Below, in pieces: positions 15,207 through 43,506 of a stretch of 44,099 nucleotides of DNA. Each line of letters opens with the position of its first letter. The stretch's first letter is position 1. Source of the DNA: Escherichia phage TR1; the sequence record OP087522.1; one strand, written 5' to 3'. The notes under the pieces were generated by a model that saw only the letters and a list, made by a program, of their open reading frames with translations, did no database searches and was not told the DNA's origin. Both the position numbers and the translations under genes were made by a program.

Positions 15207-15686
15207 ATGAACTGGCATGATTATTTTTACTATGTAGATGGCAAATTGCATTGGAAGATTAGCACTGCAAGACGTGTTAAGGTTGGCGATGAGTGCAACT
15301 CACTATCTACATCTGGCTATTACAAAGTGTCTGTTAATGGCTTTAGGACTTATGTACATAGAGTTGTGTGGGAGATGTTTAATGGAGAGCTTCAAAATGG
15401 CGACTACATTGATCATATAAACCATAACAAATTAGATAACAGAATAGAAAACCTAAGAGTAACAACAAATCAAGGTAACTCAAGAAATTGCAAGCTTAGC
15501 GTTTTATCAACAAATGGTTATTGTGGAGTGGCAAAGCTAAATCACGGAAAATTTAAGGCTCACATCAAGGTTGACGGCAAGCATCTACACCTTGGGAACT
15601 TCGATACTCCAGAGCAGGCGTATAAAGTAAGAATTGAAGCAGAGAGAAAATACAACTTTCACGAAAATCACGGGTTAAGCAAATGA
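15207..15686 (+). CDS. HNH-AP2 homing endonuclease (paralog family copy 1)
   Basis: MNWxDxFxY N-terminus, HRVVWE...DHINHNKLDNRIENLR HNH core, AP2-like GV...G.F.T.E.A C-terminal domain. Confidence 0.75.
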   Translation: MNWHDYFYYVDGKLHWKISTARRVKVGDECNSLSTSGYYKVSVNGFRTYVHRVVWEMFNGELQNGDYIDHINHNKLDNRIENLRVTTNQGNSRNCKLSVLSTNGYCGVAKLNHGKFKAHIKVDGKHLHLGNFDTPEQAYKVRIEAERKYNFHENHGLSK

Positions 15687-16606
15687 ATTACGATAAGAAT
15701 GAAGTTATACCTAAGATGGCCGGATTGTGGAAATCATTTTATGCAAAGGAACTTGGTTGGAATGATAGACACCTAAGTAAGAAGCACGGACCATGCCCAT
15801 ACTGCTTTGGCACTGACAGATTCAGATTTACCGACGAAATAGGCAGTGAAAAAGGAAATGGCGCGGCAGTTTGTTCGAAATGCGGAAGTGACTCCGGTAT
15901 AGGATGGGTCATGAAGTGCACTGGATCGTCCTTCGCCGATTCAGTAAATTTGCTTGGTGACTGGCTGAACTTAACACCAATTGAGGTTATAGTTAAAGCA
16001 AACAAGCAAGCATCAAGAACCCAGCTCTACAAAATGGGCGCACAGATTGATCACGAAAGATGCCTGGAGATAATGGAAAGGACTGAGAGAGTAGAATCTA
16101 CTCCACTCAGCATATACGAGGGTATTTATAGCGAGTTTGGTTTTGATGCTGGCAGGACAAAATCAGGCGAACTAATACACGCAGTGCCGTGCTTTATGGC
16201 TTATAGTGACGGCATATCAGAAGAAATGTGCAATGTAATGTTTATCAATGAAGAAGGGGGTGTTAGTTATGCTGCAAAAGATTATACTCGCCAGTCTATT
16301 GCTGTTATTGGCACCTTTAAAGATGATGAGTACGCTTATCTGGTCGATAATTGGATTGATGGTGTTCGCGTTCATCTTGCTACTGGCAAACGCTGTGTGC
16401 TTGTTTGCCACTCTAGCTACAACATGGAGATGGTTGCTTATGCGCTTAGAAACTACAAGCTGAGAGTGGCATGCAAGCTTGATAGGGAATTGCTTTGCGT
16501 TGCGGATGACAGGAACGTTGACGTGGTAATACCAAATGATGAATACTCATTCAAGAGCGGTATCAGGAAGAAGATATATAAAGCGAGTGATTTATTGAAT
16601 AGTTAA
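15683..16606 (+). CDS. DNA primase (zinc-ribbon CPYC...CSKC plus TOPRIM-like region)
   Basis: N-terminal Cys4 zinc-binding motif GPCPYCFGTDRFRF...CSKCG typical of phage primases; ATGA coupling with upstream HNH. Confidence 0.5.
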   Translation: MNYDKNEVIPKMAGLWKSFYAKELGWNDRHLSKKHGPCPYCFGTDRFRFTDEIGSEKGNGAAVCSKCGSDSGIGWVMKCTGSSFADSVNLLGDWLNLTPIEVIVKANKQASRTQLYKMGAQIDHERCLEIMERTERVESTPLSIYEGIYSEFGFDAGRTKSGELIHAVPCFMAYSDGISEEMCNVMFINEEGGVSYAAKDYTRQSIAVIGTFKDDEYAYLVDNWIDGVRVHLATGKRCVLVCHSSYNMEMVAYALRNYKLRVACKLDRELLCVADDRNVDVVIPNDEYSFKSGIRKKIYKASDLLNS

Positions 16607-16628
16607 CCTCCTTCGGGAGGTTTTTTTA
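16607..16628 (+). terminator. rho-independent terminator after primase
   Basis: Hairpin CCTCCTTCGGGAGG plus T7 run. Confidence 0.65.
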
Positions 16629-16693
16629 TGCCTTAAAGATGCTACAATCCAAATTAGCAATTAGTGCTATTTTACAAATGGAGACTTTACACA

Positions 16694-19171
16694 ATGGCAA
16701 TTTATGACTTAGGAACAGCGTCTCTGGCCGCTAATGGCGAGGTGACTGGCGTAGGGACAACATGGAAGGCGCCCCTTACACTGATTAGAGTTGGTGCAAC
16801 CATCGTATTTAAAACTGAACCAGTACAAATTTACACCATCTCTGAAATTATCAGTGATACTCAGATTAATGTTTATAACCCCAATTCTGAGACCGTTCCT
16901 GCCGGAACTGGTTACGCGATTCTTGCTCACGATGGAATTACCGTTCAGGGTTTAGCTCAGGATGTTGCTGAAACTCTCCGTTACTATCAATCAAGGGAAT
17001 CAGAGGTCGCAACAGCAGTTGATGTTTTTAAGGCTTTTGATCAGGATAAATTTTCAAGTGATGTAAGCCGAGTTAACACACAATTTGGAGAAATTACTGC
17101 TATTGGTGCTCAGGTCTCATCTGATGCCGCCAAAGTGACCACCGATAAGAATGCAGCGGCAGCAAGTGCAACCAGCGCATCCGCTGACAAAGATGCGGCA
17201 GCTGCATCAGCGCGGGAGGCGGCAGATTATGCGGCGTCACTTGACACACAGAACATATTAAGAAAAGACTTGGCGCTATCAGACTTAACTGACAAGCCAC
17301 TAGCAAGGCAGAACCTTGATGTTTACTCCAGGGATGAGACTGACTCAAAAATAATTAATGATTTGTCCGAGAGAGGAGGTGAACTCATTAATTTGAAAAG
17401 GGGCGGTCTTACATCAAACTTATCGACTACGATTGCTGATTTTTACCAGAATACAGTTATTAACCTTGTTACAGATTACGGTCTTGTTGGTGACTTTGAT
17501 CCCACCACTGGCGTATCTAACGGAACAAATAACGTCACTGCACTTCAGGAAGCAATCAATGATGTTATTTCCAACGGAGGTAATGTGACATTAAGATTCC
17601 CGTCAGGGAAGTTTAGATTTAAGCGTCTAAACACATACAAGCCAGGTGGCGTAGCTGTTACTTTAGGTGTTGAGGGTGCAGGTTTAAAGAATGTAATTAT
17701 TGAGGGGGATGGATTCTCAACCGAACTCTATTGCGATGATATTGGAAGATTGTTCGGGCTTTATGCTGCGAACAACGTTATCATCCGAAATATGAAGGTG
17801 ATAGGTTACGGGGGCGGTGCTACTTCGCCATCTAGAGAAAGAGACCAGGCATTCGCGTTGGGTTATAAATGCAAGAGCGTCATTTTCGATAATGTTTACA
17901 TTGATAACTTCTACGGTGACTGCATCTATTTTGGTGGAGATCTTGAGAATGGCGCAATAACAGGAAAATTCTCTAGAGATGTAACAGTAAGGAATTGCAT
18001 ACTTAAGGAGCGTTACGGCAACGGCATTCGATCCTGGGACGCATCAGGTGGCGGCACACGATCCCGTTTGGCAATGGCTGTTATCGACGTCGTAGGCCTG
18101 AAAGTACATGACAATATTATTTACGGAGAAATAGATCTAGAACCAAACTCGTCAGGCCAGAATATGCAGTATGTGGAAATCCATGACAATACATTCCGCA
18201 GTGCTGGAGTTATCCCAGTAACCAACCCTTACGAGTGTGAGCCATTGTACGAAGGAACAGCCACGATAAGAGGCGGTGTAACACTGCAAACTGTTGCGTC
18301 AAACTTGACGACCGCATCAATCACAATTCGCGATAACGCAATTGAGTACGGGCGAATTCGAATTACTGGTGGTTCAAATGCAGGTCATGTGTTGTGTCAT
18401 GGCAATAGGATACGTCGTGGTGGGTTTTTTATTGGGCATTATTCTGGAACAAACAACAACCCTAACATGATCATTAGGGATAATCATGTTGATGCTGGGT
18501 TCAATGGTAGTGACGATTACAACATGGAAGACTGGATTACTGTCGGAAGCATCCCTTTAGCTGCATTCTTTATACAAGGCAGCCTTTCATCATGTCGCGT
18601 TATTGGTAATACATGTGGAAGCCAAGATGCTAGTTTTTCTAATATGTTTTATCTTCTTAACACCACGCAAACAGGTGGGGTAGATATTGAGGCGGGCGGC
18701 GGTAGTAACCAGTGGGTGGAAAACATTGCAGTTAACACCACTGCTCTTCGTAACTACACAACGCGAACTACAGACCTTGATATTGGGAACTCCGTAATGC
18801 CAAACTCTGGGGTTGGTCGAACTGAGTTTACTAAGCAGTTAGCGAGAGTATTAATTAATCCTGTCGTTAATGTGACCGTTTCGGGAAGTAACCAGAAGAT
18901 ACAATTTAATACAAATCCCGGTAATAAATATAGATTAACTCATAGTGCAAGCTCTAGTGTAGATGGAATAACTGGCTACACTGAGGAAGCCGGGATGCAA
19001 ATACAAATAAGGAGTTCATCAGCTTCTGCATCAAACACTTTGACATTAAAATCTAGTTCAAGTTTTTATATGAAAGGAGGAGTAGACGCGACCTTGAAAT
19101 CAACTAGACACATTATTATGGTTGAGTTAATAGAGCCAGAGGGGTGGACTGAGGTATATAGAAACTTTTAA
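16694..19171 (+). CDS. tail fibre / tailspike-like protein with right-handed beta-helix (pectate-lyase-like) central domain
   Basis: Ala-rich segment AAAASATSASADKDAAAASAREAADYAAS; repeated motifs NVIIRN, DNIIYG, HDNTF, IRDNAI, IRDNHV typical of parallel beta-helix; GGAGA RBS; start taken at ATG 16694, not the upstream GTG of the ORF track. Confidence 0.55.
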   Translation: MAIYDLGTASLAANGEVTGVGTTWKAPLTLIRVGATIVFKTEPVQIYTISEIISDTQINVYNPNSETVPAGTGYAILAHDGITVQGLAQDVAETLRYYQSRESEVATAVDVFKAFDQDKFSSDVSRVNTQFGEITAIGAQVSSDAAKVTTDKNAAAASATSASADKDAAAASAREAADYAASLDTQNILRKDLALSDLTDKPLARQNLDVYSRDETDSKIINDLSERGGELINLKRGGLTSNLSTTIADFYQNTVINLVTDYGLVGDFDPTTGVSNGTNNVTALQEAINDVISNGGNVTLRFPSGKFRFKRLNTYKPGGVAVTLGVEGAGLKNVIIEGDGFSTELYCDDIGRLFGLYAANNVIIRNMKVIGYGGGATSPSRERDQAFALGYKCKSVIFDNVYIDNFYGDCIYFGGDLENGAITGKFSRDVTVRNCILKERYGNGIRSWDASGGGTRSRLAMAVIDVVGLKVHDNIIYGEIDLEPNSSGQNMQYVEIHDNTFRSAGVIPVTNPYECEPLYEGTATIRGGVTLQTVASNLTTASITIRDNAIEYGRIRITGGSNAGHVLCHGNRIRRGGFFIGHYSGTNNNPNMIIRDNHVDAGFNGSDDYNMEDWITVGSIPLAAFFIQGSLSSCRVIGNTCGSQDASFSNMFYLLNTTQTGGVDIEAGGGSNQWVENIAVNTTALRNYTTRTTDLDIGNSVMPNSGVGRTEFTKQLARVLINPVVNVTVSGSNQKIQFNTNPGNKYRLTHSASSSVDGITGYTEEAGMQIQIRSSSASASNTLTLKSSSSFYMKGGVDATLKSTRHIIMVELIEPEGWTEVYRNF

Positions 19172-19175
19172 CAAT

Positions 19176-19204
19176 AAAAAAACCCCGCCTATGCGGGGTT
19201 TTTA
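19176..19204. terminator. bidirectional rho-independent terminator between convergent tail-fibre and SSB genes
   Basis: Hairpin CCCCGC-CTAT-GCGGGG flanked by A-run and T-run. Confidence 0.65.
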
Positions 19205-19207
19205 CTA

Positions 19208-19636
19208 TCAAAATGGAATATCATCTTCAAAAGTCTGATTCTGCTGTGGTTGTTTTTGCTGCTGCTGCTGTTGCGGCTGCTGTTGCTGTTGATGTTGTTG
19301 TTGTGGTGCTGAATCACCACGCTGACTAAACTCAAGTCGCGGGTTATTCATGTTGATTGTTACGTAAGTCTTTCCATCCTTATCACGAACATCAACAGCC
19401 AACGTTTCGCAACTTACGCTAACAATCTTTCCTTCCTGAAATGCCTCGTCATACCATGCAAGCATTGATTCTTTTGCAAAGAATACAGCCCTGTAATTGT
19501 TCCAGCAAGTTTCATTATCTTTGTTCTTATATCTTTCTGACAAGTCTATAGCATACATTTTCCATAAACCATTTGAATTGCTGCCTTCTTTTGTGAATGG
19601 CTGGCGGCGAATTGTACCGGTAATTACGTGACTCAT
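19208..19636 (-). CDS. single-stranded DNA-binding protein with Gln-rich linker and acidic DDIPF tip
   Basis: C-terminal ...FEDDIPF as in bacterial SSB tails; poly-Q encoded by CAG/CAA run at about 19240-19310. Confidence 0.6.
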   Translation of the reverse strand: MSHVITGTIRRQPFTKEGSNSNGLWKMYAIDLSERYKNKDNETCWNNYRAVFFAKESMLAWYDEAFQEGKIVSVSCETLAVDVRDKDGKTYVTINMNNPRLEFSQRGDSAPQQQHQQQQQPQQQQQQKQPQQNQTFEDDIPF

Positions 19637-20007
19637 TTCATTTCCTCTCTGTTTATAAATTCGGATTTAAACTTTGATTTTATATCCAACAACTCATTGT
19701 ACGCATCTATAGGTAGCAGGTGATACTTTGTTGAGTAAAACTTTCTATTGTACATCCATCTACCGAAGTACTTTCCTGTTTTCTTGTGTAAGCAAACACC
19801 TTTATATCCAAGTGAATTATTTTTATTGGCACCCCTGTTTTGTTGGTTTTCTACCCTATTGCATTTCCTTAAATTTGCAACGTTGTTGTTTGATGGATTA
19901 CCATCAATATGATCAATCTCAAAGCTACCTAGCAAATCCTCTCCAGAGTTAACGCAATATGCAATGCGATGCACTTTTAGTCTTTTATTGTCTTGGTATA
20001 TTGACAT
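19633..20007 (-). CDS. HNH endonuclease (shorter divergent copy)
   Basis: HRIAY...EIDHIDGNPSNNNVANLR HNH core plus GYKGV AP2-like start. Confidence 0.6.
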   Translation of the reverse strand: MSIYQDNKRLKVHRIAYCVNSGEDLLGSFEIDHIDGNPSNNNVANLRKCNRVENQQNRGANKNNSLGYKGVCLHKKTGKYFGRWMYNRKFYSTKYHLLPIDAYNELLDIKSKFKSEFINREEMK

Positions 20008-20186
20008 ATAACCAAGATGATCCGGCTTTCCTACAACTAATCCGGCCTTAGCCTTTTTTACCGCGAATCTCCTGCAAAGGTTTCCATCTTAATCTATTTT
20101 GAATAACTTAGATAAGTATTCAAAGCTCAAATTCTTACCATTCATTCTTTTCTATCTGTTTTGTTGGGGCATAAGCCCCGTTTTAT

Positions 20187-20837
20187 TTAGAATGTGTCGA
20201 TTTGTTGTGATTCTACTTCAACCTTTTCGTCAGCACCACTTTTTTCTGCAACTTTCTTTGGTGTTGCTGGGTTGAATCCAGTTGCTGCATTGGCTTCAAT
20301 CTCTGCCTTGCGCTCGATAATGTGAGGTTCGAAAACCTTCCATCCCGCCGCGTCTAGTGATTGCTTGGCCTCTTTCCAGACTTTACGTAACTCATCAAGC
20401 GTGTTGCACTTCTCTAGCTCGCGCTTGAAGTCTTTAACACCTTTAGCTGCGAGATTGCCATCGTCATCTGCCTGACTAAGACCTAAAGCTGCTGTAATGC
20501 CGTAGCGTCTAGCATATGTAAGAGCAGAGCCGTAACCTTGAGCGTCATTCTTGCTGATTGGGACAATCATTAAGAAGCTAACCCACTCTCCTGACTCAGC
20601 ATGAAATAGCTTTGTCTCAACCTTCATTCTATTAGTTTGCTCGTCATCTAGGACGCTTTGAAACATAACCAAACCACACTCATCCAAACCAGGCTCAACG
20701 GCTGCTAAAACATCATCTAAGGTTGCATACTTGTTTTTAAGGTGCGAGTTCTGCTTAGAGCGCTCAGCCTTTGCAAACATTGCTTTTGCAGTGTGTAGCG
20801 CGTTTAAAATTGATTTGCATGATTCTGAAATTTGCAT
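20187..20837 (-). CDS. Erf-family single-strand annealing recombinase
   Basis: Pattern KYATLDDVLAAVEP...GSALTYARRYGITAALGL recalled as Erf-like; sits with SSB and exonuclease. Confidence 0.55.
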   Translation of the reverse strand: MQISESCKSILNALHTAKAMFAKAERSKQNSHLKNKYATLDDVLAAVEPGLDECGLVMFQSVLDDEQTNRMKVETKLFHAESGEWVSFLMIVPISKNDAQGYGSALTYARRYGITAALGLSQADDDGNLAAKGVKDFKRELEKCNTLDELRKVWKEAKQSLDAAGWKVFEPHIIERKAEIEANAATGFNPATPKKVAEKSGADEKVEVESQQIDTF

Positions 20838-20866
20838 CTTTAACCTCGTTCGTTTTTGATGGGATA

Positions 20867-20909
20867 ACTATACCTGAGCTATCCATTGTTGTTTTAGCAA
20901 TTTGTGCTA
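20867..20909 (-). promoter_or_regulatory. promoter cassette copy: palindrome TAGCA-ATTTG-TGCTA (20895-20909), 22-bp spacer, -10 TATAGT (20867-20872)
   Basis: Measured. Confidence 0.55.
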
Positions 20910-21385
20910 TTTCCGTGATTTCTATGAAATCCCAACTTAACCTCTTCGCTTTTTCTTGCTCTAGCGGCTTCCTCGATTGAGTCAAAACACCCAATGTGAT
21001 ACTCGTAACCATCCACACCCATTCTTGCTACATATTTTGATAGCCTTGGCACCCAACTAACACCCAGAACTCCGGTTTTGTTTGTTTTTCTCAATGACTG
21101 ATTCATGGCATTTCCTTGCCTATTCACCAATCGCAAGTTCTCAATCCTGTTATCATTTCTAATGTGATTTATGTGATCAACAAATAAACCACTAGGTATT
21201 TTACCATTTACGATATCCCATATAATTCTGTGAACCTTGTGCTCCCTGCCATCGTACCTCAACCTTACATAACCGTTAGTCTTACTTACATTTCCAGCAA
21301 CTTTACCAATGCAACCTCTAGTTCCGCTCATTATCTTCCATATCAAATTAACCCCATCGTAATCAAAAATTTCAGACCAGTTCAT
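20894..21385 (-). CDS. HNH-AP2 homing endonuclease (paralog family copy 2)
   Basis: MNWSEIFDY..., HRIIWD...DHINHIRNDNRIENLR, AP2-like GVSW...GCFDSIEEAARAR. Confidence 0.75.
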   Translation of the reverse strand: MNWSEIFDYDGVNLIWKIMSGTRGCIGKVAGNVSKTNGYVRLRYDGREHKVHRIIWDIVNGKIPSGLFVDHINHIRNDNRIENLRLVNRQGNAMNQSLRKTNKTGVLGVSWVPRLSKYVARMGVDGYEYHIGCFDSIEEAARARKSEEVKLGFHRNHGNSTNC

Positions 21386-22343
21386 CTCTGTATTTCCTCA
21401 TATCCCACTCAGGTACATCTAAATCAATCTCTGTTGCACCCATCGCATATCCGGGCCACACATCATTCTCTTTGCACTTCTTGTAAGTTGCAAGGGCCTC
21501 TAGATACATTCTACGACCAACCTTCAGTTGCTCTTCTGTAATATTGTAAAGCATTGGTAAGTAAGGTGCCTCTTTCTCGATTGCAAGTAACCTTACTTTT
21601 GTTCTTCTTTTCTCGTTAAAAGCCCTGACGAAAACATCGTGCTGAAGGGCCATTTTTGCGAGATACCCGTGCTTGAATGCAAGCCTCCCAAACTCCTGAG
21701 GTGATGCGCTGGCTGTCGTCTTCAGGTCTGTAATGCATACAACTCCATCAATTACATCTACGTGGTCTATTCGAATCTTCACTCCTACACCGAGAATCTC
21801 ACCAAATATTGATAACTCTTTCTGCGCCGTTTCGCTATTCACGATTTTATTATATGCCGGAATATTGCAAAGAACCTCACGCATGGCGACCACTTCGTCA
21901 TAGTCTGCTGCGCTAACCAGCTCCTTACCCTCCACAAGCGCTTGGGCGCTCTCCTGCTGCTCAATTAACCATTTAACACTCCAATCCTCACCAGAGCGAT
22001 ACATCATCTCTACAAGCTCGCTATACCCCTTCCCTGACGTGCCAGCTACACCAACTTTTTTAAGTGCTGCCGATAATGCTGTCTGACTTGTAATTAAACC
22101 ATCAATCGCATCAAGGTCGGTTGCTCGCAAGTACTCTTTATCGAACACATCTTGTTCTAGAATCATACAGTGAGATAAAGTGCCAAACTTAAGCGCCTTA
22201 CTATCATTGTTTCGCTGCTTGAACTTCCACTTAGCTGGAGAACCCTGGATAATCTCGACAAGTGAACTGCCAGAGATGTGATCAGTCTCAGAGTGGTAAG
22301 ACTCGCTGCTTAACTCCTCTCGCGTAAAAACTTTAAAGCCCAT
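21372..22343 (-). CDS. PD-(D/E)xK exonuclease (recombination exonuclease)
   Basis: Motif IDHVDVIDGVVCITDLKT (D...D-x-K); adjacent to Erf and SSB. Confidence 0.55.
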   Translation of the reverse strand: MGFKVFTREELSSESYHSETDHISGSSLVEIIQGSPAKWKFKQRNNDSKALKFGTLSHCMILEQDVFDKEYLRATDLDAIDGLITSQTALSAALKKVGVAGTSGKGYSELVEMMYRSGEDWSVKWLIEQQESAQALVEGKELVSAADYDEVVAMREVLCNIPAYNKIVNSETAQKELSIFGEILGVGVKIRIDHVDVIDGVVCITDLKTTASASPQEFGRLAFKHGYLAKMALQHDVFVRAFNEKRRTKVRLLAIEKEAPYLPMLYNITEEQLKVGRRMYLEALATYKKCKENDVWPGYAMGATEIDLDVPEWDMRKYRDELV

Positions 22344-22346
22344 ATT

Positions 22347-22694
22347 TTATTCCTTAACCTTAACTACCTTAACAGATTTCAAATCTTCTTCAGTGAAGCA
22401 CCCGGTCAGAACATCTCGGGCTTCTTCTTTGGTCTCGAATCTGTCAGCCTCGTTTTTATCCGTTGTGTATCCAGCAGGGCCACCAAAGTAGCAATCGCCG
22501 AACAGTGCGTTGTTTTTCTCTTTGATAATGTAGTAGGTCATTTCTCTATCTCTCTGGTTGTTTGCTTTCGATGGGTTAACTATATATTCGGCACGGTAGC
22601 TAGTCCAATTGGTTTTGCCAATCGTTGACTCAGACTTACGCGTGAATCCTTGTAATTTCGTGTAGGCATTGCCAATGGTTACGCTTTCTGGCAT
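22347..22694 (-). CDS. hypothetical protein (115 aa), first gene leftward from second control region
   Basis: ORF track. Confidence 0.5.
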   Translation of the reverse strand: MPESVTIGNAYTKLQGFTRKSESTIGKTNWTSYRAEYIVNPSKANNQRDREMTYYIIKEKNNALFGDCYFGGPAGYTTDKNEADRFETKEEARDVLTGCFTEEDLKSVKVVKVKE

Positions 22695-22842
22695 CTCGGC
22701 CCAGCTATAGCTTAATGTAACTAGTGTGTATATCGTGTATACCGTTTCTCGCTAAGGGTGCATCGGTATAGCTGCCGCGCAATACTGTATAAATCCACAT
22801 GATATTAAAATTATAACCGGAACACTCTATAGAAGTAGTTAC

Positions 22843-22905
22843 ATGATATACACAGTAATATATAATAATAATAATAAGAGTAAAAGCTTGATATATATAG
22901 ATATT
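22843..22905. repeat. second copy of (AAT)n-containing repeat element (5 units) with GTATAC/GTAAC motifs nearby
   Basis: TATACACAGTA-ATATATAATAATAATAATAA aligned by eye to 3398-3446. Confidence 0.6.
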
Positions 22906-35436: not shown

Positions 35437-35838
35437 TTAGTCTAGACGAACATAAAAACGAACCGGGATAAACCACCCAGACTTGGATTTGATAACCGGG
35501 TTAACAACTCCAGACTCATAAATGGTCCCGCTGTCAAGCATTGTACCATCAACGATAGATTCTGCCAATTGATTAGCTATTTGTCTCGGCTTATCAATCC
35601 CAGTCCCCGGACTGAAGAACACTGAAATCTGCACCATGCCAACGTAGTATTTGCACTTCCTGCTTAACCCGTATGTTACTGTGTCAACTTCTGTGTAGTC
35701 GTACTTAAGCCAGATTGAGCCGTCCGCAGGAGGCGCAAAGGCAGCGTTCTCCCAAGCAACTGGATATCTGACAGGAAATTCATTTACCAACAAATCGTTG
35801 ACGAATTTCCTTGCTGCTAATGATAATTCATATTGCAC
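35437..35838 (-). CDS. tail-completion / tail terminator-like protein
   Basis: Position between head-tail joining genes and major tail protein; 133 aa. Confidence 0.4.
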   Translation of the reverse strand: MQYELSLAARKFVNDLLVNEFPVRYPVAWENAAFAPPADGSIWLKYDYTEVDTVTYGLSRKCKYYVGMVQISVFFSPGTGIDKPRQIANQLAESIVDGTMLDSGTIYESGVVNPVIKSKSGWFIPVRFYVRLD

Positions 35839-36265
35839 GGCGAGCCTCCTCTACTGCTTCCTGGAAATACCTACCCAGCCTTGCTTGCACCACACCTAAA
35901 ACGCCAGCTGGAGCCTGGCTTGAAGCTCCGTATTCAAGGTCGACCGCGTAATCAAGTCGATTGGTGATATAAATAACACTTGTAGCTTTTGAGTTGGCAA
36001 CCGCTCTAGCCTGTCTGGCGAGATATGTTTTGGTCTGGCCGCCAGTCTGGTCGTACTCATTGAGTGACTGCTGAGCTGGTGAGTTTGCGGAGATTTGCCA
36101 GTTAGCCTTGAATCTGCCGGTATCGACGGGTGAAAGGTCAACAATTGCGTTTGCTGTCTTGATAACCGTATTGGATACCACAATCCCAAAACCATCCTCC
36201 GCTCTGTCAATCCAGTCAGCAATAGATTTCTCAAACGTAACTACACTCCCCATGTTTCTAGCCAT
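35828..36265 (-). CDS. head-tail joining protein (putative); start uncertain (ORF track 36358)
   Basis: Gene order; start adjusted to remove long overlap with upstream gene. Confidence 0.4.
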   Translation of the reverse strand: MARNMGSVVTFEKSIADWIDRAEDGFGIVVSNTVIKTANAIVDLSPVDTGRFKANWQISANSPAQQSLNEYDQTGGQTKTYLARQARAVANSKATSVIYITNRLDYAVDLEYGASSQAPAGVLGVVQARLGRYFQEAVEEARRAI

Positions 36266-36629
36266 AAGTAGCCACCCTGCGAAGAATCGGACGATAACCA
36301 ACAGTCGTCCCTGTTGGTTTAACGGGGCGCGGGTCAACAACAACAAAAGTCTCACCATCGACTTTGATCTGATAACCCTGCTTGATTTCTACCTGGGCCG
36401 TGAAGATTCCGCGCTTATCGCCAAACTGGATAAACTCGCCATCGATATCGCGAGTCTTGATCTCTCGCACCAAGCCCTTTAGTTGGAATTTTCTTGCTGG
36501 AACCTCAACCTCAACTCCGTTAACGATTTCAACATACCCAGCGCCAGTGCTCATCTCGTAAACGCCATTGGCATCACTAAAGAAGTTAATGCCAGCGCGA
36601 GTGATTGATTCGATTTCATTGTAGTTCAT
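36258..36629 (-). CDS. head-tail joining protein (putative); start at ATG 36629 (ATGA coupling)
   Basis: Gene order; ORF track 36258..36719 trimmed to the coupled start. Confidence 0.4.
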   Translation of the reverse strand: MNYNEIESITRAGINFFSDANGVYEMSTGAGYVEIVNGVEVEVPARKFQLKGLVREIKTRDIDGEFIQFGDKRGIFTAQVEIKQGYQIKVDGETFVVVDPRPVKPTGTTVGYRPILRRVATYG

Positions 36630-37042
36630 CGGCAACCGCACCCACCGCCAGCAGCGGAAGTAATCAATCCAAATCCGCCGCCTTTCTTGCGGAGAAGTGC
36701 CTTGTACATGCGACCCCAAGAGGAAGATGATAAGTCACCCTGGATTGCTGATTGATTATCATAAGTGATAGAGAACTCACCGCTCAGTGCGTAACTTGCC
36801 ATTCTACGACTGTATGTTTCCAAGCCTTCATTCTCCCCCTTAAATGCGCCATCAGAAAGCATCAGGTGTAGTGCATAAAGGCCCACAGCGCGATCTGCAT
36901 CATTACCAAACTTATCCGCACATACGTAGAGACGCGCCAAATCGATCCACACATTAATTGATTCATCATCCACTGCCTTGAGCGCAGGAACAAGCGATCG
37001 CATAAACGCCAAGATTTCATCATTCATATTAGCTCCATACAA
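36626..37042 (-). CDS. head completion / connector-like protein (putative)
   Basis: Gene order downstream of capsid gene; 138 aa. Confidence 0.4.
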   Translation of the reverse strand: MYGANMNDEILAFMRSLVPALKAVDDESINVWIDLARLYVCADKFGNDADRAVGLYALHLMLSDGAFKGENEGLETYSRRMASYALSGEFSITYDNQSAIQGDLSSSSWGRMYKALLRKKGGGFGLITSAAGGGCGCR

Positions 37043-37068
37043 TAAAGGACGCCGAAGCGCCCTGTTTG

Positions 37069-37314
37069 TTATTTGTACTCGTTACCGGTCTCAGCTTCGG
37101 AGATAGTTTTCGGTTCTTTGCGCTTTTTCTTGCTAATAACTTCTTGCGCGATCTGCTTGGTTGTTTTGGCGTCACCTTCGATAGTGAGCTTGCCCTCTGC
37201 GATTAAACGCTTAAGGCCGTCGCAAATTACGTCAACCTCGAAAGTGTCACCAGGCAAATATTTCTCACCCTTGTAAACGATAAGGCAAGCACCAGTGTGT
37301 TCTAAACTAATCAT
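37069..37314 (-). CDS. hypothetical structural-module protein (81 aa)
   Basis: ORF track; -10-like TTATAAT upstream at about 37349-37368 (plus coordinates). Confidence 0.45.
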   Translation of the reverse strand: MISLEHTGACLIVYKGEKYLPGDTFEVDVICDGLKRLIAEGKLTIEGDAKTTKQIAQEVISKKKRKEPKTISEAETGNEYK

Positions 37315-37378
37315 CTTTGTCTCCTTTGTTTATCTGATTGGGTGATTATAACCCAACAATTCCATTTGGTACAGGCGT

Positions 37379-37402
37379 AAAAAAGCCCTCCGAAGAGGGC
37401 GA
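37379..37402 (-). terminator. rho-independent terminator after major capsid gene
   Basis: Hairpin GCCCTC-CGAA-GAGGGC plus T-run on minus strand. Confidence 0.6.
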
Positions 37403-37406
37403 TTTA

Positions 37407-38351
37407 TTATGCAAATGTGATGCCTTTGATTACTGCCATTGTCAGAGGGCGGTAGACAATCAAGCCAGTTGCCTTGGAAGTTACAGGATATTTGAAATGT
37501 AAATCCTTCGGCTGACCAGGTAAAACGTTTGTAACTTCCGGAATCTCGATGCTCATGTTGAGCGGATCCTTTTCAAACGCCAGCGCAGCTTTACCGCCAG
37601 CACCATCGTAGTTATCCAGGAACTGCATAAAGCGCAGGGTTACGCCTGGGTTGTTACGAGTAAACAACTCGCCATAGCTCAGGGTTGTATTATCAACAAG
37701 GCGCTGCATTACACGGCGAGCGGAAGCTGGCAGCAGAATGTCAGTTACATGGTGGAAGCCCTGTGTGCTGGTTTCTACAGCATCAATCATTGCGGTAACG
37801 TCGTTAACCGCGTTAATTGGATTGCTCCAGTTTGGAGTTGCAACAACGTTGTTGATGTTCGGCTGGTTAAATACGCTTACGATGCCGTGAGGTGCAGAGC
37901 CAGACCATACCAGTTTATCAAGCAGGTTGTCGTGAGCTTCAAAAGCCAAAGCCTGTTTGCGAGCGGACAGTGACTGACCAGTAGCAGCGCCAACTTTAAT
38001 CTCATCAACTGAGATCATAAACGCATTACCGAAGCGGAATACTTTACCCTGCTTCTCGGTCATGAAAGCATCAACCAGCGGCAGGTCGTCAGAGTAATCA
38101 GCGATGATCTGAGCAATACCAACACCATCGAACTCAGGGTATTCGAAGTATTTCGCGTGACCAGGGATTTCGTTGGTTACTGGGAAGATGTTGACAACTG
38201 AGTTGTCTGCGTATTCTTTTTCGTAAGCGCGATTCAGTGATGCGGTTAACTGCTTAACGGTCCAGATACCAGCAGCATCAGCCTTATCTACGCCCATTTG
38301 CTCTAGGTGAGCGGTGATTTTTGCTTGTTCTGCATCAAATTTAATGGCCAT
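37407..38351 (-). CDS. major capsid protein
   Basis: 314-aa ORF flanked by strong terminators, preceded by extended -10 promoter; order portal - scaffold - capsid. Confidence 0.6.
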   Translation of the reverse strand: MAIKFDAEQAKITAHLEQMGVDKADAAGIWTVKQLTASLNRAYEKEYADNSVVNIFPVTNEIPGHAKYFEYPEFDGVGIAQIIADYSDDLPLVDAFMTEKQGKVFRFGNAFMISVDEIKVGAATGQSLSARKQALAFEAHDNLLDKLVWSGSAPHGIVSVFNQPNINNVVATPNWSNPINAVNDVTAMIDAVETSTQGFHHVTDILLPASARRVMQRLVDNTTLSYGELFTRNNPGVTLRFMQFLDNYDGAGGKAALAFEKDPLNMSIEIPEVTNVLPGQPKDLHFKYPVTSKATGLIVYRPLTMAVIKGITFA

Positions 38352-38387
38352 TCTTGTTTATTCCTTTTCAGTTAGGTATGTACGAGT

Positions 38388-38430
38388 CAATTATACACTA
38401 GTTTGAGGACCGCGCAATGATTCTATCATG
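38388..38430 (-). promoter_or_regulatory. sigma70-type promoter with extended -10 (TGTATAAT) upstream of capsid gene
   Basis: TG-n-TATAAT at 38390-38397 (plus coordinates), about 39 nt from the ATG. Confidence 0.4.
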
Positions 38431-38446
38431 ACCAAGCGGAAGGTAT

Positions 38447-38476
38447 AAAAAAACCTCCCGAAGGAGGTTGTTTATT
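38447..38476 (-). terminator. rho-independent terminator
   Basis: Hairpin CCTCCCGAAGGAGG with T-run on minus strand. Confidence 0.6.
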
Positions 38477-38493
38477 TGTGCATTCGGATTTTG

Positions 38494-38988
38494 TTAAGCC
38501 ACAGTTGAGTCTGCGGATTGAATCAGCTGAACTTCAACCAGTGCGCCATCAACGCTTTCACTAGCTGATACATAGCCACCAGCAAATGTGAAACCAGTTC
38601 CCCAGGTAGAACGTCCCACTTTAGCGGCAACAACGCCACTTTCATTTACGTAAACTTTGTCACCAAATGCCGGAGCAGCTGCAAGAGTAGTGCGAACCCA
38701 AATACGACCAGAAGTCATTACGTTAACTGCCTCAAGGTCGCGAGCCTGACCATCTGGAGTCTCGTAGTGAGAACGAACAACAACGCCGTAAGGTTTAATT
38801 GCAGTTCCTGATATAGCCGGAAGGGCAACAACCTTGTGACCATCTACTGGCTGAGCGGTGCTAACACCTACGAATGTTCCAACCGGGATGCGAGTGGCAT
38901 CTTTGCCACCAACTACACAAGCACCATCGATATTATACAGGGAAGTATCAGCTACCATACCTGCCAGAGCTACAGAACGAATTGCCAT
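38494..38988 (-). CDS. head protein (possible decoration/structural protein)
   Basis: 164 aa, Gly/Val/Ala-rich beta-type composition; position between scaffold-like and capsid genes. Confidence 0.4.
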   Translation of the reverse strand: MAIRSVALAGMVADTSLYNIDGACVVGGKDATRIPVGTFVGVSTAQPVDGHKVVALPAISGTAIKPYGVVVRSHYETPDGQARDLEAVNVMTSGRIWVRTTLAAAPAFGDKVYVNESGVVAAKVGRSTWGTGFTFAGGYVSASESVDGALVEVQLIQSADSTVA

Positions 38989-38999
38989 TATCTATCTCC

Positions 39000-40112
39000 T
39001 TACTTTTTAATTTTAGCCAGACGAGCACGTGGGTCTAATTTCTTAGGTTCGTCAGCTTTGTCAGATTTGTCGGAAGCTACGGTAGCTTTACGAACTTCAG
39101 CCATTTTATCAGAATCCTTGGCAATGTCGAACGCTGCGTCGATGTATGCGTCGGATTTATCAGCAACATCAAGGCCGGAAACTTCTTTAACGTAAGCTAC
39201 TTTGATGCCTTTAGCATCCAGACCATCAGTCTTAATTCCAACCTCTGCGGCTACAGTAACCAGAGCGGCAAGTGCTTCAGCGTCGGCTTTAGCAGCTTTA
39301 ACGGCTTTCTCGATTTCAGCAGGCATCGCGTCTACTTTAGCCTTCAGCGCATCACGCTCAGCTTCAATGCAGTCGGCTTTGGTTTTAGCGTCAACTGCAT
39401 CTTTTTTAATAGCTTCAATGTGTGCGGCAACTTCTGGAGCGATTTCGAACTCCTGGGCGCCATCCAGTTTAATCTTAACCATTTCTTTAACATCCTCTTT
39501 AATAGAATCAACGCTGTCAGTATACGGGTTTTCCTGTTCTGCGTCCATATTCAATTTTGCAACACCTGCGCGACCTTTGTATACCATTGCAACGTGATTA
39601 ACAATAATGTTAGTTTGCAGTGCATCAAAACGAACCCAGTCAGGTGGAATTTCATCTTGGGACTCGTAATCACCATCAAGCTTGTATTCACCAGTCTCAT
39701 CACTCCCCCACCCTGGTGATTCAACATCAACGGTTGAGTAGCCTACAGATAACTCGGCGGCAATGCCAGATTTAGCTTTCTCGATTGATTCCTTGTCGTA
39801 AACGGTTAGTGGAACTACCACGTTCGAATCCTGACGCATTGCTGAGCCAGACACTGAGCCTACAACTACCTGCTTGGCATTATCAACGTTAACAAACACG
39901 TGGCCTAAGGTAATCGGCTTGCCCTGATAACTTGCAAGAGAATCAGCTTTAAAGACCTCTGAAGCTGGCCTAAATTCGCGTCGTTCCGAGCCATCTGGCA
40001 GGTAGTATGATTGCACGCCTACGCGAGCAACCACAGGTGTATCTACCAGGAATCCGTTTTCGTCAAATCGCGCTTTAACTTTTGCACTGTCATAACGAAT
40101 TTTAGCTTTCAA
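39000..40112 (-). CDS. head morphogenesis protein (protease/scaffold-like, C-terminal coiled-coil)
   Basis: C-terminal half Ala/Lys/Glu/Asp-rich (KAKADAEALAALVTVAAEVG...); directly downstream of portal. Confidence 0.45.
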   Translation of the reverse strand: MKAKIRYDSAKVKARFDENGFLVDTPVVARVGVQSYYLPDGSERREFRPASEVFKADSLASYQGKPITLGHVFVNVDNAKQVVVGSVSGSAMRQDSNVVVPLTVYDKESIEKAKSGIAAELSVGYSTVDVESPGWGSDETGEYKLDGDYESQDEIPPDWVRFDALQTNIIVNHVAMVYKGRAGVAKLNMDAEQENPYTDSVDSIKEDVKEMVKIKLDGAQEFEIAPEVAAHIEAIKKDAVDAKTKADCIEAERDALKAKVDAMPAEIEKAVKAAKADAEALAALVTVAAEVGIKTDGLDAKGIKVAYVKEVSGLDVADKSDAYIDAAFDIAKDSDKMAEVRKATVASDKSDKADEPKKLDPRARLAKIKK

Positions 40113-41403
40113 TTACAATCTCCTCTTTTGGTGATTCTTCTTGTGCGGGCTGCTCAGTTACAATCGAACCTTCACCAATCTTAACCTCAGGGGCTAATGC
40201 GCGCAAGGTATCTCGTGCTTCATCTGCGTCCATTACTCCGTTAGTGATGAGAGTGGCGATTGAATCAACGTTATTCTTCAGTATTTCAGCGCGGTCCTTC
40301 TTCGATTCCTGAGCTAGCGGATTAAACTCAACTGACCATTCCTGCTCGGTTGTGATGAACGGGATTAAAAAACCAAGAACAGGGAGTAATTCTTCATTTC
40401 TCTTGCGGTCGATTAGTTTATGGAATGTCTCCAGTGCTGTGTTTTGGCTTGATGATACACCGCCAACGTTACGGCCTTTGAGGATGATTTCATGAATACC
40501 GCTCAGGGCAACAATCCTGTCGAATTTCTTATCCAGGAATCCATCAATCCCGCCAATATCTGAATTAAGAACGCTGTACTCTTCAGACTCTGCATCGATA
40601 CCAATTGCACGACCAACGCCGGAATTATCATCAACCTGAGCCAGCCTTAACCTTGCCGCGCCAAAACCTTCTGCGTCGTCACACAATTCAGCAAGCCCCT
40701 TCGCCTTCCATACCGCCTGTTGCTTACGGCGCAATAACTGGGTTGCCAGTTTCTCGCACGTCTGATAATCCTTGATTGCCTCCAGTAGGTCAGGAACCAG
40801 AACGCTAGCACCCCACCCATCATTGCCGAGACGCAATGAGCTAGGAATCTTCTCTCCATCCATAATGTGAACTCGAGAGTAATGCACATCATAAAACGTG
40901 GAGCTACCTTCAGGTGTTATGCGGTACGTTAGTGGTTTTCCAAATCGAACATTGCGAGGATTCTCCTCCTTCGCTTGCACCCTCACCTGACTGCGATCGT
41001 ATACTCGAAGCGATTCAAGTTCAGCACCTTCACGTACCGGACTAGTTAGCGCACGATTATCCTTAACGATAGCCACAATAGCTGAGCCGCCGAACAACCT
41101 CGCCCATGACCATGCGTCAGAGATTGACTCGTTGACCTTTAGGTAATCCCACCTTGACCAGAATTCACCCTCGTTATCAATGCCATCAATATGGAAACCT
41201 GCGGCGATTGCTGTCTCTGGGATGGTATCGACGATGCGGCGAACCAGTGAGTTAGACACGTAAAGTGAATCGGCGAATGGTGGCGCAAGGTAAGTGTTGC
41301 CGAATTGCCCGTAAATCTCGCTACCATCACTAGTTCCACCCAGGAACTGCGTGGCGTATGAATCTGCTTTTACCATTTTCTTGCTCCAATAAAAAAGCCC
41401 CAT
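40102..41403 (-). CDS. portal protein
   Basis: 433 aa immediately downstream of terminase large subunit. Confidence 0.65.
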   Translation of the reverse strand: MGLFYWSKKMVKADSYATQFLGGTSDGSEIYGQFGNTYLAPPFADSLYVSNSLVRRIVDTIPETAIAAGFHIDGIDNEGEFWSRWDYLKVNESISDAWSWARLFGGSAIVAIVKDNRALTSPVREGAELESLRVYDRSQVRVQAKEENPRNVRFGKPLTYRITPEGSSTFYDVHYSRVHIMDGEKIPSSLRLGNDGWGASVLVPDLLEAIKDYQTCEKLATQLLRRKQQAVWKAKGLAELCDDAEGFGAARLRLAQVDDNSGVGRAIGIDAESEEYSVLNSDIGGIDGFLDKKFDRIVALSGIHEIILKGRNVGGVSSSQNTALETFHKLIDRKRNEELLPVLGFLIPFITTEQEWSVEFNPLAQESKKDRAEILKNNVDSIATLITNGVMDADEARDTLRALAPEVKIGEGSIVTEQPAQEESPKEEIVIES

Positions 41404-41425
41404 TTAAGAGGCTAGTTTATCACGC

Positions 41426-42997
41426 TTATTTAATTCCTGCTAATCGCATCATTCTCGCTTTAGGGTCTTCTGCGATGTTCAGTACCAGGTTGACAGCCAT
41501 CGTCAAACAGTCTATCTGGTCATCGTGCGAGTGAGAATCATCTGCCGTAAATGCTGCAATCTCTGTTAGCAATCCGTTAAGCCAATTTGCTGACTCAGGC
41601 AGGATAACGTTGCCAGCCTTAATCTGAGGAAGTGCACTCATTACGCGAGTCAGCTTGTCGTTATCTGGCACGTATGGCTCGATAGGCGTTCGCATAACCC
41701 TTCCTGCTGATTGAATCAGACCTATACCAGATGCTTTCTTCTCTATGATGATTTTACGAAGGATACCATCTGTCTGATTGGATGCCCTTGCCATCCTCTC
41801 GAAGTCTAATAGCTCTGCCTCTAGCTCTGGCGCCTCCCATTTACCACGTCGCTGGTCTAACAGGTAAATCTTGCCATCCTTATAGCCCCAGAGTTGCAGT
41901 ACACTAAAGTCACTGTAGCTTTTAGTGGTCATCGCGGTATCAAGCGTCATGAACCTGTAATCGTACTTAGCTGGCGGTCGCAGGGTGTCACTAATGCGCT
42001 GGAGCCAGTCTACGTTAATCAGGTTGCCACCTAGAGCTACAGGCTCCTGAGCATATTGACTAAGGAATGTGTAAGGATCAGCATCACGCATGGCTATCAA
42101 GTCTTCTATTGATTCCTTTGCTGGGAAGTAGCTGTAATACTTAACCCCATCGCGCTCTACAAATGGCGAAGAAAGAACGTCATCTATAAACTGCTGCCTA
42201 ATCCATTCAGGAAGCGTGTCGGCGTATTCTTCCGTGACTATTGCTGGAATTTTAACTACGTCGAATTTTATCCCCATCTGCCCTGACTCCATGAAGTGAC
42301 TAGTGTCAAGAACATGAAGCCTTTGCTGAACGGCTAATATTGGAGTCTCTTTTCCCTTAACTGAACTCGCCCTTCGTGAGCGAATTGTGTTCTTGAGAAG
42401 CATATTAACAGCCTCCCTCCTTACATTACTAAGCGCATCATCTGGCTTCAGCGGGTCATCAAGCATTATGCATCCACTGTAATCATCGGTCATGTAACCA
42501 CCACGCGAACCAGTCACCTGTCCAGCCATTGCCTTAGATATCGATTCAAACCTCACCTTTCCATCTTCATCTAGAACCTGAATCTCATCATCCCTGCAAG
42601 TCCCAAATGAGCAAGGCCAAAGTTCCTGAAACTCCTTTGACTTAATCAGGTCGCGCACACGCTTTGAGTTACGCTTAACCAATGAGTCAGAGAACGACAA
42701 ACTAAGATTTCTAACCTTCTTAATCTTGATCATGCTATATACAGGGAAATGTATACTAAAGAGCTCGGTTTTGGCTGATCCAGGAGCTACGTTTATGATG
42801 GTATCCTTTCTCTTACCATCAAGAATCTCATCTATGACACGACAAAGGTATTTAGCATGCCAATTCATTTTGAATCTCTCGCCTTGCGTTATCTGAAAGA
42901 AGCACCGCAAGAACCCTTCGAAACTATGCTCAGAGATTGCCTTTATAGCCATCTTTTCAGCGTGAGTCAGTTCATCCCAGACTATTAATTCACTCAT
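41426..42997 (-). CDS. terminase large subunit
   Basis: ATPase region (INVAPGSAKTE) and C-terminal acidic nuclease-like motif (TADDSHSHDDQIDCLTMA); 523 aa. Confidence 0.75.
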   Translation of the reverse strand: MSELIVWDELTHAEKMAIKAISEHSFEGFLRCFFQITQGERFKMNWHAKYLCRVIDEILDGKRKDTIINVAPGSAKTELFSIHFPVYSMIKIKKVRNLSLSFSDSLVKRNSKRVRDLIKSKEFQELWPCSFGTCRDDEIQVLDEDGKVRFESISKAMAGQVTGSRGGYMTDDYSGCIMLDDPLKPDDALSNVRREAVNMLLKNTIRSRRASSVKGKETPILAVQQRLHVLDTSHFMESGQMGIKFDVVKIPAIVTEEYADTLPEWIRQQFIDDVLSSPFVERDGVKYYSYFPAKESIEDLIAMRDADPYTFLSQYAQEPVALGGNLINVDWLQRISDTLRPPAKYDYRFMTLDTAMTTKSYSDFSVLQLWGYKDGKIYLLDQRRGKWEAPELEAELLDFERMARASNQTDGILRKIIIEKKASGIGLIQSAGRVMRTPIEPYVPDNDKLTRVMSALPQIKAGNVILPESANWLNGLLTEIAAFTADDSHSHDDQIDCLTMAVNLVLNIAEDPKARMMRLAGIK

Positions 42998-42999
42998 TG

Positions 43000-43506
43000 T
43001 TACGCTCTCGTATTTAGGTAGCCTTTATTTTCAGAGCCATGATTTTCATGATATCCGTTCAATTTGTCATACTGCGACCTTGCCAATGCAGCCTCCTCTA
43101 TAGTGTCCTTGTAGCATATGAAGACTGTTTTACCAAACTCTCTAGCCTGAACAAGCCATCTATTCTCTCTTTTGCACCAGCTTACACCGTTTATTCCGCT
43201 TTTATTTCTTGATGATAGTGATCTGTTATTTGAGTTCTCTTTATTGCTTACTAACCTTAAGTTCTCTATTCTATTGTCACTTCTATTTTGGTTTATGTGA
43301 TCTATGTACATGCCTTTAGGGATTGCTCCATTGTGCATCTCCCACACCACCCTGTGACACCTGTATGCTTTTTGTCTATACTTTAGTATCACATAGCCAA
43401 ATTTATCAACTCTTCCGGCCACCTCTCCAACCTTTGATACATTTGCTACTTTTACCTTTCTTATTAAAAGCCCGTCTCTATATTCAAAAATATCATGCCA
43501 ATTCAT
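43000..43506 (-). CDS. HNH-AP2 homing endonuclease (paralog family copy 4) inserted between TerS and TerL
   Basis: MNWHDIFEY..., HRVVWEMHNG...DHINQNRSDNRIENLR, AP2-like C-terminus; own promoter cassette. Confidence 0.75.
   Translation of the reverse strand: MNWHDIFEYRDGLLIRKVKVANVSKVGEVAGRVDKFGYVILKYRQKAYRCHRVVWEMHNGAIPKGMYIDHINQNRSDNRIENLRLVSNKENSNNRSLSSRNKSGINGVSWCKRENRWLVQAREFGKTVFICYKDTIEEAALARSQYDKLNGYHENHGSENKGYLNTRA

Follow-up and report, generated by a model that had tools for sequence, protein, structure and literature searches.

The Seg and Mob genes of phage T4 are intergenic, often have their own promoters and occur sporadically among relatives. They spread when phages infect together, co-converting nearby markers, and the Seg proteins are GIY-YIG enzymes. 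Morons of lambdoid phages are also placed between genes, as units of a promoter plus an open reading frame (ORF) that typically carry host-fitness cargo and are not thought to be self-spreading, and HK97-like cos phages encode HNH proteins beside their terminase genes. The HNH-AP2 homing endonuclease genes form an established class (Magnani, Sjolander & Hake 2004, as cited in PMC10448857); in phage ICP1, the "IPA-HNH" homing endonuclease genes cluster by essential genes (terminase, tape measure), and such genes occupy genetic-exchange boundaries (Barth et al. 2023, PMC10448857). The class and its behaviour are also documented in PMC13164509, repositioning of HNH genes in T1-like phages has already been noted in the literature, and endonuclease ORFs are listed, but not analysed, in the genome paper of DTL (PMC5816109). 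Here, we examine five HNH genes in the 44,099-bp sequence of Escherichia phage TR1 (OP087522.1; the whole stretch is called the window below), an Rtp-like (T1-superfamily) Escherichia coli phage of the family Drexlerviridae, subfamily Braunvirinae. These genes belong to the known class, in a phage group already known to carry such genes.

The five ORFs are very probably free-standing homing endonuclease genes combining an I-HmuI-like HNH domain with an AP2 domain, four of them intact and one inactivated by a nonsense codon. All five lie where the initial annotation of the window had placed them and translate as it described, and together they sum to 2,463 bp, or 5.6% of the genome (gene functions here and below were assigned from annotated relatives; aa, amino acids):

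15207-15686, plus strand: HNH-A, 159 aa, intact, between the transcriptional regulator and primase genes; HNH_3 65.4 bits
19633-20145, minus strand: HNH-psi, 513 bp, disrupted, between the Erf and SSB genes
20894-21385, minus strand: HNH-B, 163 aa, intact, between the exonuclease VIII (exo) and Erf genes; HNH_3 65.6 bits
30248-30718, minus strand: HNH-C, 156 aa, intact, at the junction of the tape measure and minor tail M genes; HNH_3 68.9 bits
43000-43506, minus strand: HNH-D, 168 aa, intact, between the TerS and TerL genes

The start MNWxDxFxY occurs in four of the five, and the motifs HR(V/I)..., DHI(N/D) and N(R/N)(I/V)xN(L/I)R occur in all five. Every copy passes the Pfam model HNH_3 (PF13392; 36.8-78 bits versus a 24.8-bit cutoff, E 3e-9 to 4e-22) and has phrog_99, "HNH endonuclease," as its best PHROG, in agreement with the reported coordinates, translations and motifs; the genomic contexts given earlier are also all correct, although they were listed in an order that differs from that of the coordinates. 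A six-frame scan of the window, with a family hidden Markov model (HMM) built from the five window proteins, returned the five known copies and no sixth (the next match has E=3.9), and Pfam scans detected no other endonuclease family in the remaining unannotated larger ORFs of the window.

When the profile of the five proteins is searched against structures, positions 1-112 match I-HmuI (1u3e, E=2e-8) and positions 101-149 match the AP2 domain of Arabidopsis WRI1 (7wq5, E=1.2e-4). Residues D74/H75/N87/N96 of I-HmuI align with D69/H70/N82/N91 (HNH-D numbering), which are invariant in all 25 family members from nine genomes, including the disrupted copy, so the HNH catalytic residues whose absence would have spoken against the initial annotation are present throughout. 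Across 89 homologs, H51, D69, H70, N82 and R84 are invariant. At E<=1e-10, the homolog search recovered 199 proteins, most of them from contigs of phage size, and 12 homologs (E<=1e-20) bear precomputed matches to both AP2 (PF00847) and HNH_3 (PF13392). One sequence, a 103-aa fragment that is 99% identical to HNH-D and labelled "HNH endonuclease [Streptomyces lividans]," lies on a 43.9-kb contig and most likely reflects contamination of that assembly by a T1-like coliphage.

The full-length proteins show no Pfam match to AP2 at E<=0.01; with the C-terminal tails in isolation, AP2 is the top Pfam match in four of the five (15.5-19 bits versus a threshold of 33.3). An AlphaFold model built with the 89-sequence alignment (predicted local distance difference test [pLDDT] 92, predicted template modelling score [pTM] 0.80) resembles the solved HNH member in fold and ends in three beta-strands and a helix, a three-stranded antiparallel sheet packed on the helix that superposes on solved AP2 domains. 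A model built from a single sequence was discarded (pLDDT 36). The label HNH-AP2, proposed in the initial annotation, is justified by the HNH_3 scores, the profile matches to solved structures and the fold model, its AP2 half resting on fold and profile evidence and not on the Pfam threshold.

The copies had been described as an expanded family of paralogs, but their mutual identity at the amino acid level is 25-44%, versus 98-100% with copies at the same junctions in other phages, and they are thus separately acquired, site-specific lineages. The low mutual identity rules out recent duplication within the genome. Judging from these comparisons, each HNH gene is a separate, old lineage resident at one gene junction. 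A single junction can also hold very different lineages, as at regulator|primase in TR2 versus the window and at TerS|TerL, where the Rtp and window proteins are about 44% identical.

Scanning eight relatives with the family HMM gave zero copies in T145P1, 25988V and Msk, whose gene order is conserved, two in Rtp, three in Rao1, four in TR2, five in IME542 and six in DTL. The load of five, which had been called high, is therefore relative: IME542 equals it and DTL exceeds it, but three relatives carry none. At least 12 junctions are occupied among the relatives: TerS|TerL, TerL|portal, capsid|next gene, TMP|M (TMP, tape measure protein), L|K, I|J, upstream of exo, exo|Erf, Erf|SSB, regulator|primase, helicase|VRR-NUC and near the lysis genes. 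Every junction filled in the window has a compact, empty counterpart in relatives:

TerS|TerL: empty allele 21-27 bp; window 580 bp
TMP|M: empty allele 33-34 bp; window 546 bp
exo|Erf: empty allele 72-80 bp; window 537 bp
Erf|SSB: empty allele 43-49 bp; window 553 bp
regulator|primase: empty allele 52-91 bp; window 531 bp

The empty TerS|TerL junction (21-27 bp, no HNH gene) was measured directly in IME542, DTL, T145P1, 25988V and Msk, and in a database-wide comparison of spans it is ~0.56 kb shorter in DTL, SU57, SCS31, IMM-001 and 43 near-identical MK9072xx phages; several relatives (Rtp, BEK2/3 and 2725-N35) also have an HNH gene there. TMP|M measures only 33-34 bp in Rao1, Rtp, TR2 and DTL, and database-wide searches found it empty in BEK1-1, DTL, AKS96 and others, and regulator|primase empty in T145P1, ZL19, e4/1c and others. 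The SSB-to-exo module is matched by 207 records, of which IME542 alone carries both of the HNH genes found there in the window. The genes are thus sporadically present at a given locus, with flanking genes intact and with no intron or intein. The initial annotation had said that identical positions in all relatives would refute mobility; the relatives instead have empty junctions, and the genes are mobile and not ancestral. Its phrase "intron-less alleles" is a misnomer, as no introns are involved.

The insertions can be mapped to the base. HNH-D lies in an exact 559-bp block found only in the window (43015-43573, minus strand), which consists of a promoter-like cassette plus the gene, has the same boundaries against four empty sites (DTL, IME542, 25988V and Msk) and fits between the stop codon of TerS and the ribosome-binding site of TerL; the last five codons and stop of HNH-D fall in conserved sequence upstream of TerL. 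HNH-B corresponds to a 468-bp window-only block (20913-21380) relative to DTL; its ATG falls within the last codons of exo, with a 14-nt overlap that changes the exo C terminus from ...RDEI to ...RDELV, and its last six codons overlap the promoter-cassette motif native to Erf. This gene is common to IME542 only and has 56% amino acid identity to the TR2 copy at the same junction. The TGA stop of HNH-A overlaps the primase ATG (ATGA), the stop of HNH-psi overlaps the SSB ATG in the same way (ATGA), and the HNH-C stop and M start codon are one base apart. All five genes point the same way as their neighbours, each packed against the beginning of an essential gene (primase, SSB, Erf, M or TerL). 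They had been placed at module boundaries; instead, each lies inside a module, directly upstream of an essential gene, and one of seven donor switches in the genome (described below) falls at an HNH gene.

Other cargo is found at or near some of these junctions. In T145P1, exo|Erf holds an ORF with an NPPY motif (22409-22954) in place of an HNH gene, which, from the motif alone, may be read as a DNA adenine methyltransferase, and in vB_Ec-G8 the exo-Erf-SSB stretch exceeds that of HNH-less relatives by about 0.5 kb and includes an annotated DNA methyltransferase; unrelated cargo can therefore enter this junction, or at any rate this module. A "Rha protein" gene in Rao1 (18857-19399), IME253 and phiA2-1 lies on the strand opposite to the adjacent minor tail genes; in Rao1 it occupies the L|K junction of the tail genes, where Rtp and DTL have an HNH gene, and in IME253 and phiA2-1 it lies just past L.

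Identity that is higher in the element than in its flanks, and a tract that resembles co-conversion, bring out recent transfer for two of the copies. HNH-A together with its 52-bp leader is 98.5-99.8% identical in six phages: IME542 (Christensenvirus), DTL (Loudonvirus), CEB_EC3a (Guelphvirus), RobRod40, AugustePiccard and phiA2-1. Across these six, identity to the window changes along the locus as follows:

regulator gene: 80-88%
leader: 96-100%
HNH-A: 98.5-100%
primase, first 300 bp: 98.7-100%
primase, next 300 bp: 68-94% in five phages (IME542 left out)
distal primase: 64-92% in the same five phages (IME542 left out)

The shared tract is as follows:

15152-16020, plus strand: shared HNH-A tract (~870 bp), comprising the 52-bp leader with a hairpin, HNH-A and the first ~330 bp of primase

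Its left edge (~15151-15155) is sharp in all six phages, and its right edge lies at ~16015-16027 in five of the six, IME542 being identical much further. In HNH-less relatives, the 5′ segment of primase is 67-80% identical and partly unalignable, and the distal primase is 83-84% identical in four of the six HNH-less relatives compared. We infer that the tract is a co-conversion tract and a candidate target or immunity region; the divergent 5′ primase of HNH-less alleles would fit a conversion tract that carries a cleavage-resistant target allele. The HNH-C ORF is 97.2% identical to its counterparts in IME253 and phiA2-1, versus 73-80% for M and 80-86% for the tape measure gene. These comparisons support recent horizontal spread of at least two copies, HNH-A and HNH-C, as the initial annotation had proposed in more general terms.

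The leader of HNH-A also contains a terminator-like structure:

15161-15184, plus strand: hairpin with a T-run, past the regulator gene and ahead of HNH-A

In CEB_EC3a this hairpin is annotated as a terminator; it includes TGCCATAAT, an extended -10-like sequence, and is part of the tract that is near-identical in the six phages.

The ORF at 19633-20007, which had been taken for a shorter, divergent copy, is an internal-ATG remnant (the tail) of a nonsense-disrupted full-length gene of 513 bp (19633-20145, minus strand). The ATG of this gene is at 20145-20143, and codon 19 is TAA (20089-20091) through a C-to-A change on the gene strand at position 20090, where IME542 has TCA (Ser). The intact ortholog, IME542 gp70, is 170 aa long and 99.4% identical, the three differences being Ser19 to stop, S104R and G166R; a search of 50,697 phage records found the gene in IME542 and in no other. 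Faster decay of HNH-psi is not significant (3 differences versus 1.3 expected from 44 differences per 16.5 kb over the whole IME542-like tract; P=0.15). On this comparison, HNH-psi is a full-length family member inactivated by a nonsense codon, and we do not claim accelerated decay; the change at 20090 may be a base-call error.

Comparing the regions upstream of all HNH copies across phages revealed a promoter-like cassette. Its motif, TAGCACNNNNTGNTAA at <=1 mismatch, occurs at 15 sites in the window versus 1.0 expected (none of 100 shuffles reaches 15) and 15-21 times in each of the eight relatives. Thirteen of the 15 are co-oriented with local genes, starting at or just after the upstream stop codon:

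2036-2051, minus strand
3757-3772, plus strand
4567-4582, plus strand
5160-5175, plus strand
8611-8626, minus strand
9821-9836, minus strand
12161-12176, minus strand
14652-14667, minus strand
20894-20909, minus strand: motif of the native Erf cassette (20838-20909), with -10 TATAGT at 20867-20872
23003-23018, plus strand
30774-30789, minus strand: motif TAGCACAAAATGGTAA of the HNH-C cassette (30719-30789), with -10 TATAAT at 30747-30752 and the ATG 56 nt after the motif
34714-34729, minus strand
43562-43577, minus strand: motif TAGCACTTTTTGTTAA of the HNH-D cassette (43507-43577), with -10 GATAAT at 43535-43540

The layout is TAGCAC-N4-TGnTAA followed by a TATAAT-like hexamer at 21±1 nt (13 of 13), and then by a leader that is like CATCGAAACGAA in most copies, a ribosome-binding site and an ATG 56-69 nt past the motif. 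The motif is a partial palindrome (TAGCA-N5-TGCTA). Two more matches, at 16654-16669 (minus strand) and 11091-11106 (plus strand), have an anti-gene orientation or are intragenic and lack a downstream cassette; they probably reflect the palindromic nature of the motif. A generic sigma-70 scan of the window gave no excess of promoters; the cassettes escaped it because their -35-like TTGnTA is 22 nt from the -10, too distant to serve as a standard -35.

In the window, what follows a cassette is always a nonstructural gene or a small accessory ORF. HNH-C and HNH-D each come first after a cassette, in line with the initial annotation, which gave two copies promoter cassettes of their own; HNH-A, HNH-B and the fifth copy have none. 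The HNH-D motif begins with the TerS stop codon, TAG. As the empty TMP|M and TerS|TerL alleles lack a cassette, cassette and ORF move as one unit at these sites. The Erf cassette is also present in HNH-less relatives and is hence native; at exo|Erf, HNH-B of the window lies just upstream of it, and the different lineage in TR2 adds a second cassette. Over the nine genomes, a cassette accompanies 7 of 8 HNH lineages in structural operons versus 3 of 9 early-region lineages (Fisher p=0.05), which suggests the hypothesis that it gives early expression to nucleases that have landed in late operons. We found no description of the cassette in the literature searched, the original T1 and Rtp genome papers lying outside that search, and we make no claim of novelty.

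The palindrome, near -42 relative to the predicted transcription start, points to an activator-dependent layout for this putative promoter, and a phage helix-turn-helix regulator (14681-15154) is a candidate binder. The cassette could be a Braunvirinae-specific, activator-dependent early or middle promoter that has been captured by HNH-AP2 genes in late operons, yielding autonomous mobile modules of promoter and nuclease, and whose 15-21 copies serve as landing pads or homology arms, a proposal that we put forward tentatively and regard as rather unlikely. Dispersed cassettes acting as landing pads would explain the occurrence of one nuclease family at 12 or more junctions. The uneven distribution of cassettes between late-region and early-region lineages is compatible with the proposal, as is the fact that both exo|Erf lineages abut the native Erf cassette; a general landing-pad role is disfavoured by the lack of a cassette in empty TerS|TerL and TMP|M alleles.

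A further ORF with its own cassette is flanked by the major tail gene on one side and the tail chaperone genes on the other:

34270-34650, minus strand: 126 aa, weakly lipoprotein-like (LPAM_1 signal below cutoff)

Seven of the eight relatives have nothing corresponding to it and Rtp has only a 31% match, so that it looks like a moron-like accessory insert.

The window is apparently a complete genome, as the phage TR2 record starts at the same point, runs in the same orientation and has the same early gene coordinates. It is a mosaic of three kinds of donor:

1-2100, 3600-7500, 8400-15000 and 37500-44099: Rao1 and TR2 (99-100% identity)
7500-8400 and 15100-31800: vB_EcoS_IME542 (99-100% identity)
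31800-37500: closest to Rtp (83-98% identity)

The packaging, head and most replication genes are Rao1/TR2/CY1-like (99-100%); the lysis genes, along with everything from the primase-side HNH gene through the 3′ part of the tape measure gene, are IME542-like (99-100%); and Rtp is the closest match (83-98%) for the head-tail joining genes and the middle of the tape measure gene. The seven donor switches lie near 2100, 3600, 7500, 8400, 15150, 31780 and 37450, and the switch from Rao1/TR2-like to IME542-like sequence at ~15137-15155 coincides with the left edge of the HNH-A tract. Among the eight relatives, the segment at 31800-32700, in the central tape measure gene, is alignable to Rtp only (83-88%), making the tape measure gene itself chimeric. 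The 99-100% identity to Rao1 and TR2 is interrupted at 2100-3600, where T145P1 and 25988V are nearest (about 80%); this block holds a DUF7174 gene (2576-3124) and an unannotated 176-aa ORF (2049-2579). One tRNA gene is present, as in the TR2 annotation and as reported for other T1-like phages:

322-397, minus strand: tRNA-Arg (anticodon CCT)

Homing would proceed as follows. In a cell co-infected by a related Braunvirinae phage that bears an empty junction, the enzyme would bind DNA through its N-terminal beta-domain and its AP2 domain and cut near that junction, probably by a single-strand nick that replication turns into a break, by analogy with I-HmuI. Repair from the HNH-bearing genome, by the phage exonuclease VIII, Erf and SSB or by a host system, would give the recipient the HNH gene, its cassette where present and a variable length of flanking DNA. 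The domain architecture, catalytic residues, presence/absence alleles, excess of HNH over flank identity and conversion-like tract are direct observations; cleavage, its form as a nick or a double-strand break, the target positions and the promoter function of the cassettes are inferred.

Several points weigh against homing as the source of these genes. AP2 remains below the Pfam threshold, and the HNH-A tail has no AP2 match at all. In the case of HNH-B, HNH-D and the fifth copy, every phage with the same lineage has the same flanks as well, leaving no contrast between HNH gene and flank. At any single site, a gain would look the same as a precise loss through recombination with an empty allele, and the one donor switch at an HNH gene, that at ~15.15 kb, is compatible with chance. 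The other six switches, where mosaicism arose with no HNH gene at hand, would be expected if these genes were moron-like units of promoter plus ORF that ordinary recombination, homologous or illegitimate, shuffles with the help of the repeated ~70-bp cassette, with a nuclease that is not self-spreading but is retained for its benefit to the phage, such as excluding competitor markers or degrading foreign DNA. The cassette is indeed a genome-wide repeat, far above expectation in the window and present 15-21 times in every relative; it moves with HNH-C and HNH-D; and unrelated cargo shares the same architecture or junctions (the T145P1 NPPY ORF, the vB_Ec-G8 methyltransferase and ORF 34270-34650). 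Yet three of the five copies bring no cassette with them, there is none to recombine with in the empty TerS|TerL and TMP|M alleles, the catalytic residues are strictly conserved in all lineages, and the short, sharp, near-identical HNH-A tract in six diverged genomes is what nuclease-initiated gene conversion would be expected to leave. Passive shuffling of cassettes is plausible as a contributor; as the whole explanation we consider it improbable.

The position of HNH-D between the terminase subunit genes, tight against the TerL start codon, and the HNH genes at TerS|TerL in Rtp, BEK2/3 and 2725-N35 could point to an accessory nuclease for DNA packaging, comparable to the HNH proteins of HK97-like cos phages. 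No HNH gene lies there, however, in many close relatives whose TerS and TerL are homologous, which makes the gene dispensable, and HNH-D shares its HNH_3-AP2 architecture with the copies at four nonpackaging junctions and arrives as a precise insert with its own cassette. Because a packaging function would call for conservation with the cognate terminase, the relatives without the gene led us to reject this role, to which we attach very little probability. Scarcer still is the chance that the HNH genes are ancestral, repeatedly deleted in relatives and now inert passengers. Occupied and empty states coexist at all junctions and do not polarise the direction of change at a single site, and the fifth copy, with its nonsense codon, is decaying; but HNH-A and HNH-C are far more similar than the essential genes that flank them, the opposite of what vertical descent predicts, very different lineages occupy the same junction, and empty alleles have identical compact boundaries across diverged genomes. 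On the sequence comparisons, identity of HNH genes far above that of their flanks largely refutes the ancestral reading.

To what was known of such genes, the present analysis adds the pseudogene call, the independence of the lineages, base-precise insertion maps at five junctions, the HNH-A tract and the cassette. Sequenced relatives with an empty allele at each of the five junctions amount to a clean natural experiment, and the HNH-A tract predicts a cut site at the regulator|primase junction or in the first ~330 bp of primase; in these E. coli phages, which are easy to grow, mapping the targets and making homing crosses should be straightforward. Over short stretches, such genes make phages appear more closely related than they are, and they flag recombination-prone spots in phages that are therapy candidates or fermentation contaminants, and the cassette may help to annotate transcription units in the subfamily Braunvirinae.

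Measured against the described systems, HNH-D resembles the HNH genes of HK97-like phages in adjoining terminase genes but differs in being dispensable in relatives, in belonging to the HNH_3-AP2 class and in forming a discrete insertion between TerS and TerL. HNH-C and HNH-D are, like lambdoid morons, units of cassette plus ORF placed precisely in late operons, although, unlike morons, they carry what is by analogy a site-specific nuclease. The HNH-A tract resembles the conversion tracts of the T4 Seg and Mob genes, which lack AP2 and differ in their DNA-binding modules, phage family and promoter type. I-HmuI of Bacillus phage SPO1 (1U3E) is an HNH nicking enzyme encoded inside a group I intron, whereas the window genes are free-standing; the match to it ends at about residue 112, from where the window proteins continue with an AP2 domain, the C-terminal region of I-HmuI being helical, with a helix-turn-helix. 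The IPA-HNH genes of ICP1 have HNH domains described as too divergent for Pfam HNH_3, which the window copies pass strongly, AP2 being their weaker Pfam match; the two groups are alike in joining an N-terminal HNH domain to a C-terminal AP2 domain and in being free-standing, phage-borne, situated beside essential genes, such as those for terminase, tape measure and replication, and linked to genome exchange.

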